A stretch of 7,082 nt of DNA from a virus (taxonomy: Duplodnaviria > Heunggongvirae > Uroviricota > Caudoviricetes), in the IMG/VR virus record IMGVR_UViG_2695420821_000006; one strand, 5' to 3'. Each line of letters starts with the position of its first letter. Within the stretch, counting starts at the first letter, position 1. Shown here in pieces: positions 1 through 7,082 of the stretch. The position numbers were made by a program, and so were the translations under genes. The notes beneath the pieces are model-generated. The model was not told where the DNA came from. It searched no databases and saw nothing but the letters and a program-made list of their open reading frames with translations.

Positions 1-26
1 GTAAGCGTGCAGCAAGAACCGTATTG
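1..26. repeat. IS66 terminal inverted repeat (tnpC-proximal end)
   Basis: Starts GTAAGCGTGCAGCAAGAACCGT; pairs imperfectly with the reverse complement of 2429-2454 (shared GTAAGCGT, then CAGCA and CCGT blocks). Exact IR length is uncertain. Confidence 0.55.
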
Positions 27-37
27 ACGGGGATGTG

Positions 38-1576
38 TTATTCAGTCGGCAGTGCTACGCGCCAGGGGAGCAGTTCGCCGACCCGGTTTATCGGCCAGTC
101 GGCTATGACGTCAAGGACATAGCGGAGGTAGCTTTCTGGCTCCACTCCGTTCAGTTTGCACGTCCCGATCAGGCTGTACAGCAGCGCTCCCCGCTCTCCT
201 CCATGATCCGAACCGAAGAACAGGTAGTTTTTGCGGCCCAGACTGACCATCCGCAACGCATTTTCAGCGATGTTATTGTCCGCCTCAGCCCAGCCATCAT
301 CTGCATAGTACGTCAGCGCCGGCCACTGGTTCAGGGCGTATGCGAACGCTTTCGCCAGTTCTGAGTGTCGCGACAGGGTTTTCATCTTTTCACGCAGCCA
401 GCTTTCCAGGGATTTCAGCAGCGGTTTCGTTTTCAACTGACGTTCGGCAAGGCGCTGCTCCGCCGTCATTCCCCTTATCTCTGCCTCGATGGCGTACAGT
501 TCGCCGATCCGTTTCAGCGCTTCCTCCGTCAGGGCTGACGGGGTGCGAACGTGCACATCGTGGATTTTACGGCGGGCGTGAGCCCAACAGGCGGCTTCCG
601 TTATCCGGCCATCCCGGTACAGCTCGTTGAACCCGGCGTATGCATCCGCCTGCAGTACACCACTGAACCCCGCAAGATGGGTCTGCGGATGGATGCCTTT
701 TCTGTCCGGGCTGTAAGCGAACCACACCGCCGGCGCCAGCGTTGACCCGGCGTTACGGTCGTCACGAACGTAGGTCCATAACCGCCCGGTCTTCGTTTTC
801 TTATTGCCTGGCAACAGCACCGGGACAGGCGTGTCATCAGCATGGAGCTTACCGTCAGTCAGCACATAGTCCTGAAGCGCTTCTTCCAGCGGTGACAGTA
901 GCCGGCAGCATGCATCCACCCAGCCCGACAGCAGTGAACGACTCAGCTCCACGCCCTGGCGGCCGTACATTTCAGACTGGCGGTACAGCGGGGTGTGCTC
1001 TGCATACTTTGAGATCAGCACGCGGGCCAGCAGCCCCGGTCCTGCGATACCCCGCTCGATGGGCCGTGAAGGCGCGGGGGCCTGCACGATGGCATCGCAC
1101 TGAGTACAGGCATGCTTTTCACGTACAGTCCGGATAACCCGGAAGGCGCTGCGCATCAGCTCCAGCTGTTCGGCGGCATCCTCACCCAGATAGCTCAGCG
1201 AGCCTCCACATTCCGGGCAGCATGACGCTGCCGGCAGCAGCCGTTTTTCATCGCGGGGGAGTGATTCGGGGAACGGTTTGCGGGTGCGGGTTTGACGCAG
1301 CGGGCGCTGCACGGCCGGGTCGTCAACCCGACCGGTAAGGGTATCACTTTCTTTCTGAAGTGCCTTCAGGTCAGCTTCCATCTGTGCGATACGACGGGAG
1401 ACTTTTTCCGAGCGGCTGCCGAAGTTCATCCGGCGCAGCTTATCCAGCTGTGCCTGCAGATGGTCTATTTCGCGTTCACGCTCGTTCAGCTTTTCCTGCA
1501 GGGCACGGTTCAGCGCCTCCTGTTCGGCAAGGAGACGTTTCAGTGCATTGATATCGTCAGGAAGTGAGCTGCTCAT
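38..1576 (-). CDS. tnpC: IS66-family transposase (TnpC / Orf3), 512 aa
   Basis: 512-aa ORF with an N-terminal coiled-coil-like region ([19 protein letters not shown]...), a CxxC...CxxC zinc-finger-like pair (CCPECGG...CTQCD) and a long catalytic core; matches my recollection of IS66 TnpC architecture. It is the last of three co-oriented IS ORFs. Confidence 0.88.
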
Positions 1577-1624
1577 ACCGGGTATATTACCAGGCTCATT
1601 CAGCGTCGACCAGGATAAAGAGGC

Positions 1625-1972
1625 TTACAACATAGTCAGGGACGTAAGCAGTCTTTTAGGCTGCCGCCAGTCGATACCTTCCAGCAGCATCGCCAGCTGT
1701 GCCGGTGTGAGGAACACTTTGCCATCCCGGGCTGACGGCCAGGCGAAGCGGCCGCGCTCCAGCCGTTTGGTCAGCAGACACAGTCCATCGCCGGTAGACC
1801 AGAGGAGCTTTACCTGACTGCCATTACGCCCACGGAAGATAAAAACGTGACCTGACATCGGATCGTCTTTCAGCGTCGTCTGCACCTTTGCCGCCAGGCC
1901 GTTGAAGCCGTTTCTCATATCGGTGATGCCAGCGACCAGCCAGATCTTTGTCCCTGATGGTAATGGGATCAA
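1625..1972 (-). CDS. tnpB: IS66 Orf2 (TnpB-type accessory protein), 115 aa
   Basis: Translation MIPLPSGTKIWLVAGITDMRNGFNGLAAKVQ... has the characteristic IS66 Orf2 N-terminus; its start overlaps the tnpA stop by 4 bp. Confidence 0.85.
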   Translation of the reverse strand: MIPLPSGTKIWLVAGITDMRNGFNGLAAKVQTTLKDDPMSGHVFIFRGRNGSQVKLLWSTGDGLCLLTKRLERGRFAWPSARDGKVFLTPAQLAMLLEGIDWRQPKRLLTSLTML

Positions 1973-2373
1973 CGTTTGAGCTCCCGTATCAGCAGGTTCA
2001 GGATATTTTCGCTGATGGCACCATTCAGACGGAGTGATCCGTGCCGGAACGTCACTTCACAGCTGATATTGAGTGATTCAGGTGTCGCAGCAGCTACAGG
2101 TTGTGACCGGGGGGAGGTTGTAGGGACAACATCTTCGGCATCAAGTGTTATCGGGAGCAGCTCAGGCACGTTGTTTTCTGTTGTTGAAGGAGGACGTAGT
2201 TTTCCTTCGCGCCAGTACTGGCGCCACTTGAACAGCAAATTATCGTTGATCCCATGCTCACGAGCGAGTTGCGCTACGGAGATCTCTGGTCGATGCGAGA
2301 GTTCAACCATTTTGATTTTGAACTCAACGGGATAATTAGGGCTTTTTTTACGCACTGCGGTTAATGATTTCAT
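1969..2373 (-). CDS. tnpA: IS66 Orf1 (TnpA, helix-turn-helix transposase accessory protein), 134 aa
   Basis: N-terminal HTH-like region (EFKIKMVELSHRPEISVAQLAREHGINDNLLFKWRQ) typical of IS3/IS66 orfA proteins; first ORF inside the tnpA-proximal IR. Confidence 0.82.
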   Translation of the reverse strand: MKSLTAVRKKSPNYPVEFKIKMVELSHRPEISVAQLAREHGINDNLLFKWRQYWREGKLRPPSTTENNVPELLPITLDAEDVVPTTSPRSQPVAAATPESLNISCEVTFRHGSLRLNGAISENILNLLIRELKR

Positions 2374-2428
2374 GGATAGCGTCCACCATATTTGGTGTCC
2401 ACTATTCTCTCAGGAATTTCAGGATCTG

Positions 2429-2454
2429 CCAGACGGTGCTGAGACGACGCTTAC
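2429..2454. repeat. IS66 terminal inverted repeat (tnpA-proximal end)
   Basis: Reverse complement of 2429-2454 reads GTAAGCGTCGTCTCAGCACCGTCTGG, matching the pos 1-26 terminus in the first 8 nt and in later blocks. Confidence 0.55.
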
Positions 2455-2470
2455 AAATGGCGGTAGTGAA

Positions 2471-2653
2471 ATGCGAAAATTCAAAATAATTATTGAAACG
2501 GGAATAGCTGGTGGAGATTTTGAGGATGTATTCGAAGTAGATGATGACGCAACACCTGATGAAATTCATGACGAAGCAAAAGAAATTTTCTTTAACTACT
2601 GCAATTACTCATACCACGAAATAAAAGACGAAGAGGAAGGACAAAATGGCTGA
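2471..2653 (+). CDS. Small strongly acidic hypothetical protein (60 aa); first gene of the coupled operon
   Basis: ATG at 2471 is the first in-frame start outside the IS; the longer ORF-track call (2372..2653) begins inside the IS and is taken as read-through artefact. About 18 of 60 residues are D/E against 5 K/R. The stop overlaps the next start (ATGGCTGA). The RBS is weak (GGTAG). Confidence 0.5.
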   Translation: MRKFKIIIETGIAGGDFEDVFEVDDDATPDEIHDEAKEIFFNYCNYSYHEIKDEEEGQNG

Positions 2654-2822
2654 TTTTGGTTCAACTAAATATAACGCCAGTTTTGAAGAATGGCATGAAC
2701 TGTTAATGGATTATGCAGAGTTACGCGGTGGAAGTGCCGCTGATGCTGAAGCATGGCGTGATGATTATGAAGCAGGGAAAACTCCGGTCGAAGCATATTG
2801 TGATGAGTGGGGCGATGAATGA
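2646..2822 (+). CDS. Small strongly acidic hypothetical protein (58 aa)
   Basis: ORF MADFGSTKYNASFEEWHELLMDYAELRGGSAADAEAWRDDYEAGKTPVEAYCDEWGDE, below the ORF-track size cutoff. About 16 of 58 residues are D/E against 4 K/R. Its start overlaps the upstream stop and its stop overlaps the next start (ATGA at 2819-2822). Confidence 0.5.
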   Translation: MADFGSTKYNASFEEWHELLMDYAELRGGSAADAEAWRDDYEAGKTPVEAYCDEWGDE

Positions 2823-3178
2823 GCGAGATTAATTATCAGGAAGGGCATGAAAAGGCAGGGCAGGCAAAACCAGTGGCATGGCGATATCGCTACGTGAAAA
2901 AAGGCGTTACAGACTTTCAGGGGAAGCAGTGGGCTGGTGACTGGAAATATGTCCAGACAAAAGAAGATTGTAACGACAGACCGAACTATGAAATTCAGGC
3001 GTTATTCACGGCCCCGCCAGCCCCGGTGACATCAGAAGGACTAGTTAAAGCCGTGCGCTTTTATGAACAGGTAAAGCGTGAGAATCCACCCGTCGAAACA
3101 GGTGCATGGAAAGATGCTGTTGACTGGGTACTCAAAGAGGCTTGTCAGGTTGTAAACATTCGCATCAAAGGAGAATGA
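2819..3178 (+). CDS. Hypothetical protein, 119 aa (not recognised)
   Basis: Uninterrupted ORF with ATGA overlap to the upstream gene; the next gene starts 2 nt after its stop. W/Y-rich, no family recognised. Confidence 0.6.
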   Translation: MSEINYQEGHEKAGQAKPVAWRYRYVKKGVTDFQGKQWAGDWKYVQTKEDCNDRPNYEIQALFTAPPAPVTSEGLVKAVRFYEQVKRENPPVETGAWKDAVDWVLKEACQVVNIRIKGE

Positions 3179-3179
3179 G

Positions 3180-3695
3180 ATGGCGTTAACACACCGCGAA
3201 CTCTGTCAGATTGCCTACAGGTTCCTTAAGCGCAACGGGTTCAAGGTTTGCTTTCATGACCGCTTTGTTGCTGTAACCAGTACTGGAGAACAACCAGATG
3301 CTATGGGATTCAGAAATTCAGCATCATGCCTGATAGAGGCGAAGTGTTCTCGTGCTGACTTGTTGGCAGATAGAAAAAAGCGTTTCCGTAAAAATCCCTC
3401 TCTTGGCATGGGGGACTGGCGATTCTTTATTAGTGAGCCGGGAATTATTTCAATTGAGGATTTACCACCTGGCTGGGGATTACTTCACGTTGTTAACGGA
3501 AGAGTACGGAAAGTATATGGGTGGCCCAAGGGTAATTGCTGTTGGGGTAATCCTGACGATAAGCCATTTACCGGAAATAAGCAGGTTGAATGCGATTACA
3601 TGTTATCTGCATTAAGGCGCATGGAGTTGAGAGGGCACCTTAATGAAATATATGACGGTGTAATTGTTAATAAGAAAGAAGGAAACGCGGCATGA
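3180..3695 (+). CDS. Putative PD-(D/E)xK-fold nuclease-like protein (possibly MmcB-like), 171 aa
   Basis: Contains QPDAMGF followed about 12 residues later by LIEAKCSRADLLAD, i.e. a D ... E-x-K arrangement resembling the restriction-endonuclease-like catalytic motif. Family assignment is motif-based only. Confidence 0.6.
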   Translation: MALTHRELCQIAYRFLKRNGFKVCFHDRFVAVTSTGEQPDAMGFRNSASCLIEAKCSRADLLADRKKRFRKNPSLGMGDWRFFISEPGIISIEDLPPGWGLLHVVNGRVRKVYGWPKGNCCWGNPDDKPFTGNKQVECDYMLSALRRMELRGHLNEIYDGVIVNKKEGNAA

Positions 3696-4261
3696 TCACT
3701 ATTACCAAAGAGCGACTACTGACAATCAAGCAGTGGCGCGAAACATACGGACCTGGTAGCAACGTTGTGCTTCCAGCAGAAGAAGCGGAAGAGCTGGCAC
3801 GGATTGCACTGGCATCACTGGCAGCAGTATCGGATGAACGAGCAGCCTATGAATTATTTATGGAGAAGCGTTTCGGAGAATCTGTAGATCGCCGCAGAGC
3901 AAAAAATGGCGATAGAGAATACATGGCATGGGATATGGCGCTTGGCTGGATTATCTGGTGTCACCGCGCCGCCATGCTTCAGGCTGGAAACTTTCGGGAA
4001 CATAAGGGTTCGTCAACCAATAATTTTCGGGAAATCTCGGAAACGTCAACCAACCATCCGGTAACTCCGGATGGTTGGATAAGCTGTAGTGAGCGAATGC
4101 CGGATGACGGGCAGTGGTGCGTAGTGAACACAGAATACGGGTATTACGTGCAATGCTGGTCTGAAGGTCAAGGATGGCTTGGTGATGATATCAGCATCCC
4201 TGAATGCGATGTAATCAATCGGATGCTTCTACCTGAACCGCCGCAGAAGGTGCGCCAATGA
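3692..4261 (+). CDS. Phage-type protein with C-terminal DUF551-like domain, 189 aa
   Basis: C-terminus PDGWISCSERMPDDGQWCVVN...YYVQCW fits the W-I-S-x-x-(D/E)-R-(L/M)-P signature I associate with DUF551, which is common in lambdoid nin/early-region proteins. ATGA overlap with the upstream gene. The linker between domains contains a DNA-level repeat. Confidence 0.7.
   Translation: MITITKERLLTIKQWRETYGPGSNVVLPAEEAEELARIALASLAAVSDERAAYELFMEKRFGESVDRRRAKNGDREYMAWDMALGWIIWCHRAAMLQAGNFREHKGSSTNNFREISETSTNHPVTPDGWISCSERMPDDGQWCVVNTEYGYYVQCWSEGQGWLGDDISIPECDVINRMLLPEPPQKVRQ
3989..4053. repeat. Two imperfect ~32-bp direct repeats inside the DUF551 gene linker
   Basis: 3989-4020 AACTTTCGGGAACATAAGGGTTCGTCAACCAA and 4022-4053 AATTTTCGGGAAATCTCGGAAACGTCAACCAA; about 23 of 32 positions identical, with conserved TTCGGGAA and CGTCAACCAA ends. 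Encodes NFREHKGSSTN / NFREISETSTN. Confidence 0.7.
4050..4078. repeat. Perfect 12-bp inverted repeat with 5-bp spacer inside the DUF551 gene
   Basis: CCAACCATCCGG-TAACT-CCGGATGGTTGG; the arms are exact reverse complements. Located directly 3' of the direct repeats. Confidence 0.8.
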
Positions 4262-4341
4262 ACTGGCCTGAAGCATTTGCAATTACAGGCGTTGCTATGG
4301 CTATCGCTTTTTTAGTATATGTTATTTGTCGGTGGGGGTAA
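4258..4341 (+). CDS. Putative small hydrophobic peptide (27 aa)
   Basis: MNWPEAFAITGVAMAIAFLVYVICRWG; its start overlaps the stop of the DUF551 gene (ATGA), suggesting translational coupling. One predicted transmembrane helix. Too short for confident calling. Confidence 0.4.
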   Translation: MNWPEAFAITGVAMAIAFLVYVICRWG

Positions 4342-4376
4342 AAACGTTCGCCGGGATTAACACCAAAGGAGGGAAT

Positions 4377-4475
4377 ATGTCGGATGATATTTCACTGGCA
4401 ATGGAAGGCGCGCTGGCCGTTATTTCTGTTGTGGGCGTTTACTGCCTGGTTGTGTTTTTGATGGATCGGATGTGA
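4377..4475 (+). CDS. Putative small hydrophobic peptide (32 aa)
   Basis: MSDDISLAMEGALAVISVVGVYCLVVFLMDRM; preceded by a strong RBS AAGGAGGG (4366-4373) 4 nt before the ATG. One predicted transmembrane helix. Confidence 0.45.
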   Translation: MSDDISLAMEGALAVISVVGVYCLVVFLMDRM

Positions 4476-4522
4476 AACTGAATTCATTGCGATATGGGCA
4501 TTCCCATATCGGGTAAAACGGT

Positions 4523-4550
4523 TTGCGGTAAAGCGAGAGTTAAGTAGAAT
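4523..4550 (+). promoter_or_regulatory. Putative sigma70 promoter of the hok/mok mRNA
   Basis: TTGCGG (4523-4528), 16-nt spacer, TAGAAT (4545-4550); predicted start near 4557-4560, where the sequence (GGGTGCTTGAGGCTGTCTGCCTC...) resembles the 5' end of plasmid R1 hok mRNA as I recall it. Confidence 0.45.
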
Positions 4551-4556
4551 TGCTGC

Positions 4557-4568
4557 GGGTGCTTGAGG
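4557..4568 (+). promoter_or_regulatory. hok mRNA 5' element (tac-like) complementary to the 3' fbi-like element
   Basis: GGGTGCTTGAGG is complementary, with one bulge, to CCTCAACGCACCC at 4931-4943. It is followed by a 9-bp stem CTGTCTGCC / GGCAGACAG (4570-4578 with 4596-4604). Confidence 0.45.
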
Positions 4569-4609
4569 CTGTCTGCCTCGGGCATGCCGACGTAAGGCAG
4601 ACAGAGAAA

Positions 4610-4676
4610 AGCCCCAGTTAACATTATGCGTCTTGCAGGACGCTTAACATTAATCTGAGGCCATATCTATGACTTG
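4610..4676 (-). ncRNA. sok: Predicted Sok-like antisense RNA (approximate boundaries)
   Basis: A minus-strand promoter (features 4684-4712) would start transcription near 4676, giving an antisense RNA across the mok SD and start codon as in hok/sok systems. The 3' end is not defined; only a weak hairpin (GCGTC…GACGC) and a short T-run are visible. Confidence 0.4.
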
Positions 4677-4881
4677 CACACTTAGATTAGCCTCTTACGC
4701 GCCGAAAGGCAAGGAGCAGCAGGCTATGAAGCAGCAAAAGGCGATGCTAATCGCCCTGATCGTCATCTGTATTACCGTCGTTGTAACGGTACTGGTAACG
4801 AGGAAAGACCTCTGCGAGGTACGAATCCGAACCGGCCAGACGGAGGTCGCTGTCTTCACAGCTTACGAATCTGAGAAGTAA
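4669..4881 (+). CDS. mok: mok-type reading frame (70 codons) that includes the hok frame and shares its stop
   Basis: ATG at 4669 with SD GAGG (4657-4660); in frame with hok. The arrangement is as I recall for chromosomal mokC/hokC. This is the target region for the antisense RNA. Confidence 0.5.
   Translation: MTCTLRLASYAPKGKEQQAMKQQKAMLIALIVICITVVVTVLVTRKDLCEVRIRTGQTEVAVFTAYESEK
4684..4712 (-). promoter_or_regulatory. Putative sok promoter
   Basis: On the minus strand: TTGCCT (complement of 4707-4712), 17-nt spacer, TAATCT (complement of 4684-4689); it lies inside the start of the mok frame, as expected for sok. Confidence 0.4.
4726..4881 (+). CDS. hok: Hok/Gef-family type I toxin (small membrane killer protein), 51 aa
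   Basis: MKQQKAMLIALIVICITVVVTVLVTRKDLCEVRIRTGQTEVAVFTAYESEK aligns by eye with Hok (…[27 protein letters not shown]): one transmembrane helix followed by the conserved TRK-LCE-R…EVA-F-AYES-K tail. RBS AAGGAG at 4711-4716. Confidence 0.88.
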   Translation: MKQQKAMLIALIVICITVVVTVLVTRKDLCEVRIRTGQTEVAVFTAYESEK

Positions 4882-4930
4882 GAGACCCGGCGAGGGAGAA
4901 ATCCCTCGCCACCTCTGATGTGTCAGGCAT

Positions 4931-4943
4931 CCTCAACGCACCC
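4931..4943 (+). promoter_or_regulatory. fbi-like 3' element of hok mRNA
   Basis: CCTCAACGCACCC is complementary to the mRNA 5' end (4557-4568). It lies between a perfect 9-bp hairpin (GGCGAGGGA-GAAA-TCCCTCGCC, 4889-4910) and the terminator. Confidence 0.45.
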
Positions 4944-4951
4944 GCACTTAA

Positions 4952-4976
4952 CCCGCTTCTGCGGGTTTTGTTTTTT
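4952..4976 (+). terminator. Rho-independent terminator of the hok mRNA
   Basis: CCCGC-TTCT-GCGGG stem-loop (4952-4965) followed by TTTTGTTTTTT (4966-4976). Confidence 0.7.
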
Positions 4977-4997
4977 CTTGACATTCTGGTTTACAAT
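4968..4997 (+). promoter_or_regulatory. Possible weak promoter for the downstream ORF
   Basis: TTGTTT (4968-4973), 18-nt spacer, TACAAT (4992-4997). A perfect TTGACA at 4978-4983 is too close to that -10 element to be its -35. Speculative. Confidence 0.25.
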
Positions 4998-5047
4998 TCG
5001 CACGCCAGCCTGAACAACTGGCACCTGCTGTGTCACCGGAGAACCCG

Positions 5048-5239
5048 ATGGCGCAACGTATAAAATCCCACAATTCTGAAGCCGTCCCGGCCATTAAGCG
5101 GGGGCGGCATTCGCACGTATTTAAAACCGACTGGTACCAGCATCCCCCATGCACTGAAGAACAGGCCGAATGGCTGATTCAGTGTTACCGCAGGCGCGGA
5201 TATTGGTGTGTCACGTTAACCGGAAAAAGGAAAGTTTGA
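5048..5239 (+). CDS. Hypothetical 63-aa ORF, possibly the 5' part of a frameshifted gene continuing into the TerB-like frame
   Basis: ATG at 5048 with RBS GGAGA (5038-5042); the ORF track starts it at an upstream GTG (5030). It ends at TGA 5237-5239, directly after an A5 run (5224-5228) where a +1 shift would enter the TerB-like frame. Confidence 0.3.
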   Translation: MAQRIKSHNSEAVPAIKRGRHSHVFKTDWYQHPPCTEEQAEWLIQCYRRRGYWCVTLTGKRKV

Positions 5240-5612
5240 GAAACGCGATCTGGCACAGGCGGTGATTAACGCCGCATACCTGGTGGCCTGTGCAGATGGT
5301 GAATGTGAGGCTTCCTAGAAAGCGAAGATCGAACAGGTACTGCGTAATCAGCCTGCGCTGTACGCGTTTACGTCAGAAATTAATGCGATTAGCGCAACCA
5401 TTATCGGTCAGCTGGATACGAACTTTAAAACTGGTCGTCGTGCGGCGTTACGTGAGATCGAGGATGTGAAACACGATACGCGTGAAGCGGAAGATGTGCT
5501 GGATGTGGCGGTGGCCATTGCGGAGGCAGACGGCGAAATTGAGCCGGAAGAGCGCAAGGTGCTGGAAGAGATTGCCGGTGTTCTGGGTCTTCGTCTGGAG
5601 AATTACCTGTGA
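5220..5612 (+). pseudogene. TerB-family (tellurite-resistance TerB-like domain) gene, apparently disrupted
   Basis: The frame reads …AQAVINAAYLVACADGECEAS*KAKIEQVL…VAIAEADGEIEPEERKVLEEIAGVLGLRLENYL*, i.e. two ADG-x5-E-x-(K/R) repeats typical of TerB-like domains. There is an in-frame TAG at 5316-5318 (probably from GAG), a TAA at 5217-5219 just upstream, and no ATG/GTG start before the domain. Confidence 0.55.
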
Positions 5613-5776
5613 CGGTAAAACTGCGCCTGACTGTGGCTGCACTCCTGCTGTTTCTGGTGGTGATGGTGGATTTCACCAGCAGAATCATGTCGGTGCTGGC
5701 GGATGGGGTGCTGGTCTGCGGCATTATGGTATTGCTGTGGCCGGTGATAAAAAGAAACAGCCTGCATAATGCTTGA
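5609..5776 (+). CDS. Putative small membrane protein (about 55 aa, GTG start) coupled to the TerB-like frame
   Basis: GTG at 5609 overlaps the TerB-frame stop (GTGA). Translation (M)TVKLRLTVAALLLFLVVMVDFTSRIMSVLADGVLVCGIMVLLWPVIKRNSLHNA is hydrophobic with two potential helices. Followed by a T-rich stretch (5777-5790). An alternative ATG start is at 5663. Confidence 0.3.
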   Translation: MTVKLRLTVAALLLFLVVMVDFTSRIMSVLADGVLVCGIMVLLWPVIKRNSLHNA

Positions 5777-6090
5777 TTTTTTTGTTTGCTGTTTATTAAA
5801 AACACTTCTGCATGGTGAATCCCCCTGTGCGGTGGGGCAATCAGCAAGAAGGAATATGGGGTAATCGCGGATTCAGGTGCTGATACTGAATTCACCGGGA
5901 GGCACCCGGCACCATGCTTTGCCACAAAAGTGTTATTTCTGTTTTTCTCAAACTATCATCGTTATCCCTTTATTTTCGGCTGCGCATGGCGCGGCCTTTT
6001 TTTTACGACCAGCCACTGGCAGATGGTCATCCTGTGATTTGATTCCGCTTCCGGCTTTTTAACTCTGTTCCTCTACACGGGAGAAATTCG

Positions 6091-7082
6091 ATGTCGATTA
6101 AACATTATGATGTTGTCAGGGCGGCGTCGCCGTCAGACCTTGCGGAAAAGCTGACACACAAACTGAAAGAGGGCTGGCAGCCATACGGCGGACCGGTTGC
6201 CATTACGCCGTACACACTGATGCAGGCGGTGGCTATTGAAGGAGAGCCACAGGTCGGCCCTTCATCTGAGCCGGATTGGTACTACGTCATCGTACTGGCC
6301 GGGCAGTCCAATGCCATGGCTTACGGTGAAGGGCTTCCGCTGCCGGATTCATACGATGCTCCGGATCCGCGCATTAAACAGCTGGCGCGCCGCAGTACAG
6401 TGACGCCGGGCGGGGCTGCCTGCAGATATAACGATATTATTCCGGCTGACCACTGTCTGCATGATGTGCAGGATATGAGTACGCTGAATCATCCGAGGGC
6501 TGACCTGAGCAAAGGGCAGTACGGCTGTGTCGGCCAGGGTTTACATATTGCCAAAAAACTGCTCCCGTATATCCCGAATAACGCGGGGATCCTGCTGGTA
6601 CCATGCTGTCGTGGTGGTTCGGCATTTACCCAGGGCGCGGAGGGGACATTCAGCGAGTCCACGGGGGCCAGTCAGGATTCGGCACGCTGGGGGGTGGGCA
6701 AGCCGTTATATCAGGATCTGATTTCCCGCACAAAAGCGGCATTGCAGAAAAATCCCAAAAACGTTCTGCTGGCCGTCTGCTGGATGCAGGGTGAGTTTGA
6801 CATGAGCGCCGCCACCCACGCACAGCAACCTGCGCTGTTTACAGCCATGCTGACACAGTTTCGTGCTGACCTCTCCGTGTTTAACGCGCAGTGCCATGGT
6901 GGCAGCGCTGCAGATGTGCCGTGGGTTTGTGGTGACACGACGTATTACTGGAAAAATACATACGCTACCCAATACGACACCGTGTACGGCGGGTATAAAA
7001 ACAGGGAGAGTGAGGGCGTTTATTTTGTGCCCTTCATGACAGACGGTAACGGCGTCAATACCGCCACTAACGCGCCGGCAGA
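6091..7082 (+). CDS. nanS: Prophage-type NanS-p-like 9-O-acetyl-sialate esterase (DUF1737-like N-terminal domain + SASA/GDSL-like esterase domain); 3' end truncated by the window
   Basis: RBS GGGAGA 8 nt before the ATG at 6091. N-terminus MSIKHYDVVRAASPSDLAEKLTHKLKEGWQPYGGPV… resembles the DUF1737 domain, followed by YYVIVLAGQSNAMAYGEG with the GQSN catalytic-serine motif of sialate O-acetylesterases. Open frame runs to the window end (330 codons, no stop). Confidence 0.78.
   Translation, partial: MSIKHYDVVRAASPSDLAEKLTHKLKEGWQPYGGPVAITPYTLMQAVAIEGEPQVGPSSEPDWYYVIVLAGQSNAMAYGEGLPLPDSYDAPDPRIKQLARRSTVTPGGAACRYNDIIPADHCLHDVQDMSTLNHPRADLSKGQYGCVGQGLHIAKKLLPYIPNNAGILLVPCCRGGSAFTQGAEGTFSESTGASQDSARWGVGKPLYQDLISRTKAALQKNPKNVLLAVCWMQGEFDMSAATHAQQPALFTAMLTQFRADLSVFNAQCHGGSAADVPWVCGDTTYYWKNTYATQYDTVYGGYKNRESEGVYFVPFMTDGNGVNTATNAPA

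Follow-up and report, generated by a model that had tools for sequence, protein, structure and literature searches.

What becomes of a row of phage genes when an insertion sequence (IS) comes to lie only a few nucleotides in front of one of them? The stretch of viral DNA analyzed here (7,082 nucleotides, referred to below as the window) raises this question, since an IS belonging to the IS66 family occupies its first third and a small gene starts with the ATG at position 2471, just beyond the end of the element. A preliminary description, made from the letters of the sequence, had presented this gene as the first one of an operon that had lost its promoter, perhaps truncated at its 5' end and perhaps expressed now from the IS. 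We have compared the window with genomes that carry the same site with and without the IS, and we have used the comparison to establish what was inserted, into what kind of locus, and with what expected consequences for the genes located downstream. The coordinates of all the features are collected in Table 1.

A complete copy of ISEc22

A megablast comparison of window positions 1–2454 with the complete E. coli genomes gave many matches with 100% identity across 2454/2454 bp, located in unrelated chromosomal and plasmid contexts. As the full-length matches are found in such unrelated contexts, both ends of the IS are fixed at window positions 1 and 2454; the end at 2454 is also given by the comparison with the empty site (see next section). 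The preliminary description had recognized an IS66 family element ending precisely here, and in this it was correct. ISEc22 is an insertion sequence of the IS66 family, common in E. coli and found also in other Enterobacteriaceae. The name used here is the RefSeq/PGAP label of the matching copies ("IS66-like element ISEc22 family") and does not come from a comparison with the ISfinder reference.

All the hallmarks of the IS66 family are present, i.e., a DDE transposase (TnpC), tnpA and tnpB upstream of it on the same strand, inverted repeats and an 8-bp duplication. The genes are arranged on the minus strand in the order tnpA-tnpB-tnpC, with a 4-nt overlap between tnpA and tnpB and a gap of 48 nt between tnpB and the start of tnpC. 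Besides the matches listed in Table 1, tnpA fits the NCBIfam model of IS66-like TnpA proteins (NF047595) with 82.8 bits over a cutoff of 74, and tnpC fits the transpos_IS66 model (NF033517) with an E-value of 2.8e-140 and 467.8 bits over a cutoff of 180, and contains in addition the Pfam domains LZ_Tnp_IS66, zf-IS66 and DDE_Tnp_IS66_C. Both termini start with GTAAGCGT, the first 8 nt being perfect and the rest imperfect up to ~25 nt, and the inverted repeats of the family have this same form (~20–30 bp, imperfect, beginning GTAAGCG). To judge from its sequence, the region 1–2454 is a complete ISEc22, and apparently a functional one.

A single difference was seen inside tnpC, where the window has a G at position 590 and the occupied relative described below (L011, position 4120) has an A. 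The G is presumably the base of the other ISEc22 copies, whose matches are given as a rounded 100%.

Table 1. Features of the 7,082-nt window, with the evidence on which each of them is based.
Feature	Position	Strand	Evidence or remarks
Complete ISEc22 (IS66 family), 2454 bp	1..2454	-	Full-length copies and Pfam/NCBIfam matches of its ORFs
Terminal inverted repeat, tnpC-distal end, GTAAGCGTGCAGCAAGAACCGTATT	1..25	.	Aligned to the reverse complement of 2430-2454
tnpC, DDE transposase, 512 aa, intact	38..1576	-	Pfam DDE_Tnp_IS66 5.2e-107
tnpB, 115 aa	1625..1972	-	Pfam TnpB_IS66 1.6e-38; NCBIfam IS66_TnpB 3.2e-35
tnpA, HTH accessory protein, 134 aa	1969..2373	-	Pfam HTH_Tnp_1 9.1e-12
Terminal inverted repeat, tnpA-proximal end, ...ACGACGCTTAC	2430..2454	.	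IS-end alignment
Target-site duplication, right-hand copy, AAATGGCG	2455..2462	.	L011/L006 comparison
Remnant of the native leader, 16 nt	2455..2470	+	Same as L006; 15/16 identical to L001, L002
DUF7167 gene, full length, 60 aa	2471..2653	+	Pfam DUF7167 2.6e-14, profile 1-60/60
Four tightly packed phage genes, 58, 119, 171 and 189 aa	2646..4261	+	ORF list; PHROG 519, 660, 9263/631 and 60
hok/sok type I toxin-antitoxin locus	4557-4881		Rfam sok RF01794, 114.8 bits, 4557-4731
Deletion junction, 2562 bp lost with respect to L011 8733-11294	5201..5202	.	Window/L011 alignment
TerB-family pseudogene	5250-5612		N-terminal part missing; 97 codons match Pfam TerB 9.1e-08
DUF3927/TciB-like small membrane protein gene	5609-5776		PHROG 1470
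STnc100, full-length match	5781-5953	+	Rfam RF02076, 100.8 bits
DUF1737 + SASA sialate O-acetylesterase-type gene	6091-7082		Runs past the end of the window

Occupied and empty insertion sites

Two genomes retrieved by the exact 60-aa product of 2471–2653 provided the site in both states. One of them (GCA_040813315.1, hereafter L011) carries this IS at the same position, within a contig of 5.29 Mb, with both flanks present, and its positions 3531–8732 correspond to window 1–5202 with one mismatch. The other (GCA_045610005.1, hereafter L006) has the gene order of the window without the IS and differs by 3 mismatches across positions 2455–5202 (2748 bp). In L011 the octamer AAATGGCG abuts the IS on either side, and in the empty site of L006 it is found in a single copy (...GGCCGTTCGAAATGGCGGTAGTGAAATG). 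When the IS and one of the octamers are taken out of L011, the result is a 70-nt stretch that is present exactly in L006. The octamer being paired in one genome and single in the other, and the reconstruction being exact, AAATGGCG is the 8-bp target duplication. Duplications of this size are the ones expected for IS66 elements, and the preliminary description had proposed to look for the empty site and for an 8-bp duplication.

The duplication is demonstrated in L011, the source genome of the window being represented by the right copy only. Actually, base 1 of the window is also base 1 of the IS, so that the DNA on the left side, with its copy of AAATGGCG, falls outside of the window; in the case of a simple insertion, the source genome would read ...CGTTCGAAATGGCG immediately before the IS. 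The insertion point of ISEc22 is the 3' end of a 93-nt intergenic spacer, and the octamer duplicated there, AAATGGCG, is located 9–16 nt before the start codon of the DUF7167 gene. The interval of 16 nt between the IS end and the ATG, already given in the preliminary description, was found to be right.

The 726 bp that follow the IS (2455–3180) are uninterrupted in 1525 complete E. coli genomes, with identities of 90–96%, and the junction between the IS and the DUF7167 gene was found in 0 complete E. coli genomes of the collection. The junction pattern was equally absent from the GTDB representative genomes. It does appear in two independent IMG/VR contigs (L003 and L004).

The 100% identity to other copies of the element, the perfect duplication, the exact restoration of the empty site and the rarity of the junction all indicate that the insertion is recent. 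The preliminary description had reached the same view from the higher GC content of the IS. The contrast is real, with 57.2% in the IS, 46.3% in the gene block 2455–4261 and 50.1% in the rest of the window, but it reflects the composition of the IS itself and says nothing about recency, so that the conclusion stands and the argument does not.

The early operon of a lambdoid prophage

In the uninterrupted loci (L001, L002, L005–L010 and L012–L014) the DUF7167 gene is found mid-way in a long co-directional series. The series starts at a divergent repressor with a cro/YdaS-like gene and YdaT, followed by replication genes (DnaT/P-like or IstB/DnaA-like), continues with DUF1627, DUF977, a 118-aa gene, the 93-nt spacer, DUF7167, small genes and DUF551, and ends with hok, DUF968, RusA and the antiterminator Q. 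On the leftward side DicB is present in L006 and L010, and DUF1391 in most loci. The same lambdoid early-operon synteny, from repressor/cro to rusA and Q, is found in the IS-bearing L011; the window keeps only the part of the operon downstream of the IS and is devoid of rusA and Q. From its gene order and gene families, the locus belongs to a Qin/Rac-like lambdoid prophage of E. coli and represents its rightward early operon.

This has consequences for what the IS has displaced. In the uninterrupted loci the early operon starts ~3.5 kb upstream of the insertion point, with the cro-like gene and the native promoter region next to it, and the gene at 2471, which had been taken as the first of its operon, turns out to be an internal one. 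It is indeed cut off from its native upstream DNA by the 2.45-kb IS, as had been proposed and as the comparison with the uninterrupted loci makes clear. What has been displaced is an operon-internal spacer together with the upstream genes, and not a dedicated promoter. Neither a promoter-like nor a terminator-like site was found in this spacer (93 nt in the empty site), and it showed no significant RNA structure (fold z-score -0.06).

The gene next to the IS and its transcription

Two readings would change the nature of the junction itself. Assemblies are often broken or mis-joined at IS copies, and the window has its own start at the very start of such an element, which might suggest that the junction is an assembly artefact or a chimera formed at a repeated IS. 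Against this, the 5.29-Mb contig of L011 contains the junction with both flanks and the perfect duplication, and L003 and L004 contain it independently; we give the artefact hardly any credence. It is just as improbable that the gene at 2471 has been 5'-truncated or converted into an N-terminally extended fusion starting at the ATG in 2372. As already noticed in the preliminary description, one of the plus strand frames runs without a stop from the IS into the gene, giving an ORF of 93 aa from that ATG. However, the 60-aa product spans the complete DUF7167 profile and also positions 1–56/57 of PHROG 1997 (1.4e-30), an identical 60-aa protein is found in 1071 blocks of the collection (9 of 10 listed places being without the IS), and PGAP annotated a gene of 183 nt at the matching position in the uninterrupted L001 and L002. 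Besides, the empty site has an in-frame stop 22 codons upstream of the ATG with no alternative start between them, and the ATG at 2372 overlaps in antisense the start codon of tnpA and is not preceded by a Shine-Dalgarno-like sequence. The truncated remnant was rejected given the full profile coverage, the identical protein at uninterrupted loci and the upstream stop. The frame open from the IS is there, but it is accidental, the antisense strand of the IS end happening to have no stop in it, and the gene should be annotated as coding for a normal 60-aa DUF7167 protein rather than as a pseudogene or a 93-aa ORF.

The alternatives regarding transcription are of a different kind. All three IS genes are located on the minus strand and point toward the phage early promoter region, with DUF7167 behind them, and this opposite orientation excludes that read-through from them reaches DUF7167, as had been suggested. 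The preliminary description had also considered that the IS end could supply an outward promoter, in which case the IS would drive the block from DUF7167 to DUF551, and might do so constitutively in lysogens. Outward or hybrid promoters occur in IS1, IS2, IS10 and ISEcp1. They are documented for IS1 (PMC8764528), and a promoter-trap study in Paracoccus ascribed terminal outward promoters to tested members of IS3, IS5 and IS21 (PMC3281130); the available text of these two studies names no IS66 member, and our literature search found no report of an outward promoter in this family. A standard consensus scan over the plus strand of 1–2700 found no promoter-like site, and a relaxed sigma-70 scan of the plus strand of 2200–2470 gave nothing better than 8/12 matches, the best pair (TTTTGA and GATAAT at 2310–2336, with a 15-nt spacer) being 140 nt from the IS end. 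Nearer to the end there are pairs of hexamers with 7/12 matches at 2364–2392 and 2382–2408. The 16 nt left between the IS end and the ATG are too few for a hybrid promoter. In this test, based on sequence motifs, neither an outward nor a hybrid promoter was recognized at the IS end. Consensus scans may overlook weak or non-sigma-70 promoters, so that some low-level outward transcription might still come from there. Weighing the precedents in other families and the weak 7/12 pairs against the outcome of the scans, the 16-nt gap and the families named in the Paracoccus study, we consider it unlikely that the IS provides a promoter for the block. Somewhat more doubtful still is a version in which the tnpA-proximal end of ISEc22 would contain a cryptic, non-consensus promoter making DUF7167–DUF551 constitutive, the insertion and the loss of Q representing a step of domestication. 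If that were true, the genes concerned would be a block otherwise silent under prophage repression, and the case would not be one of simple decay.

The reading that we prefer is that the insertion acts by polarity. The transcript started at the phage early promoter would have to cross the whole 2.45-kb IS, which would be antisense and untranslated. Untranslated stretches lower the expression of downstream genes by Rho-dependent polarity unless there is antitermination. Strong polarity on the downstream early genes would thus be expected at induction, and in a repressed lysogen there would be essentially no effect; the early genes are silent there anyway, so that the effect would become visible only on induction. 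Polar uncoupling of the downstream early genes from the phage promoter is therefore the likely outcome. The polarity would be weak if N-like antitermination in this phage allowed the early transcripts to run through the IS. The plus strand of the IS contains two weak terminator-like hairpins (1227–1241 and 2153–2178), to be compared with 3.0 expected by chance.

Some minor features were observed around the start of the DUF7167 gene. The GGCGG at 2459–2463, 7 nt before the ATG, may act as a weak Shine-Dalgarno-like ribosome-binding site. There is also a mini-ORF of 10 codons (2457–2489, MAVVKCENSK) that has its ATG inside the target duplication and extends, in another reading frame, across the DUF7167 start. 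In L006 (~5970–6020) a strong AGGAGG is located 9 nt upstream of the ATG of this mini-ORF, and in the window the IS splits the two. The mini-ORF and its AGGAGG may have arisen by chance, or they may form a leader for translational coupling.

Genes downstream of the insertion and loss of the Q region

The four genes of the block 2646–4261 overlap by 4–8 nt or are 1 nt apart, and their order is kept in L006 and L011. The one of 189 aa has a DUF551 C-terminus (Pfam). Short hydrophobic ORFs follow the DUF551 gene (4259–4475), one of ~27 aa from 4259 and another of 32 aa at 4377–4475, the latter annotated as a gene in both L006 and L011. In the hok/sok locus the Hok/Gef ORF (4669–4881) has 70 aa counted from the first ATG and 51 aa as annotated by PGAP (hokD) in the relatives. 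This locus probably has its own promoter, and hence would be independent of the IS.

Further downstream the window lacks the 2562 bp that L011 has between the two segments shared by both, and window 5201–6089 corresponds to L011 11295–12183. The only microhomology at the flanks of the deletion is TA. The deleted segment comprised the 3' part of a 90-aa gene, DUF968, rusA and the antiterminator Q, and what remains at the junction is a fusion ORF of 63 aa (5048–5239), for whose product the lookup found no record. The deletion junction was absent from the complete E. coli genomes and was found only in the IMG/VR contig L003, which is identical (100%) to window 2360–7078, deletion included. The contig L004 corresponds to L011 5354–10812 and has the IS and not the deletion. 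As L004 carries the IS without the deletion and L003 carries the deletion, the insertion most likely preceded the loss of DUF968, rusA and Q. With Q, the late-gene antiterminator, lost, the prophage is defective.

Beyond the deletion, the TerB pseudogene has an in-frame TAG (5316–5318) and its sequence is the same in L011. STnc100 is flanked by the DUF3927 gene and the DUF1737/SASA esterase gene, two genes of the kind that lambdoid and Stx-type prophages typically carry.

Comparison with known systems

Taking all the data into account, we find it very probable that a complete ISEc22 was recently inserted into the early operon of a Qin/Rac-like prophage, leaving the downstream genes intact but separated from their promoter and expected to suffer polarity, and that the Q region was deleted later. 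This is a known IS taking part in ordinary prophage decay, an event of an already known kind, and its importance beyond annotation is little. The locus does offer a clean case for ISEc22, with the site known in both its occupied and its empty state and with the 8-bp duplication in view. It also tells in which order a lambdoid prophage went through two steps of decay, most likely first the IS and then the loss of DUF968–rusA–Q.

Compared with the other copies of ISEc22, the one described here has the same 2454 bp, the same tnpA-tnpB-tnpC arrangement, the same GTAAGCGT termini and the 8-bp duplication, and only its insertion site is particular. The defective lambdoid prophages of the Qin/Rac type match the window in gene order and gene families, as seen in the uninterrupted L001, L002, L006 and others, and its hok/sok corresponds to the hokD annotated in L001 and L002, but the window differs from these relatives in carrying the IS and in lacking the DUF968–rusA–Q segment. 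Polar insertions of IS1 and IS2 in the early operons of phage lambda, such as r14 and r32, are classical. There too an IS interrupts a lambdoid rightward early operon in its promoter-distal part, and polarity uncouples the downstream genes; in contrast to those cases, the element found here belongs to the IS66 family, it resides in a defective prophage of the Qin/Rac kind, and the polarity is one that we infer.
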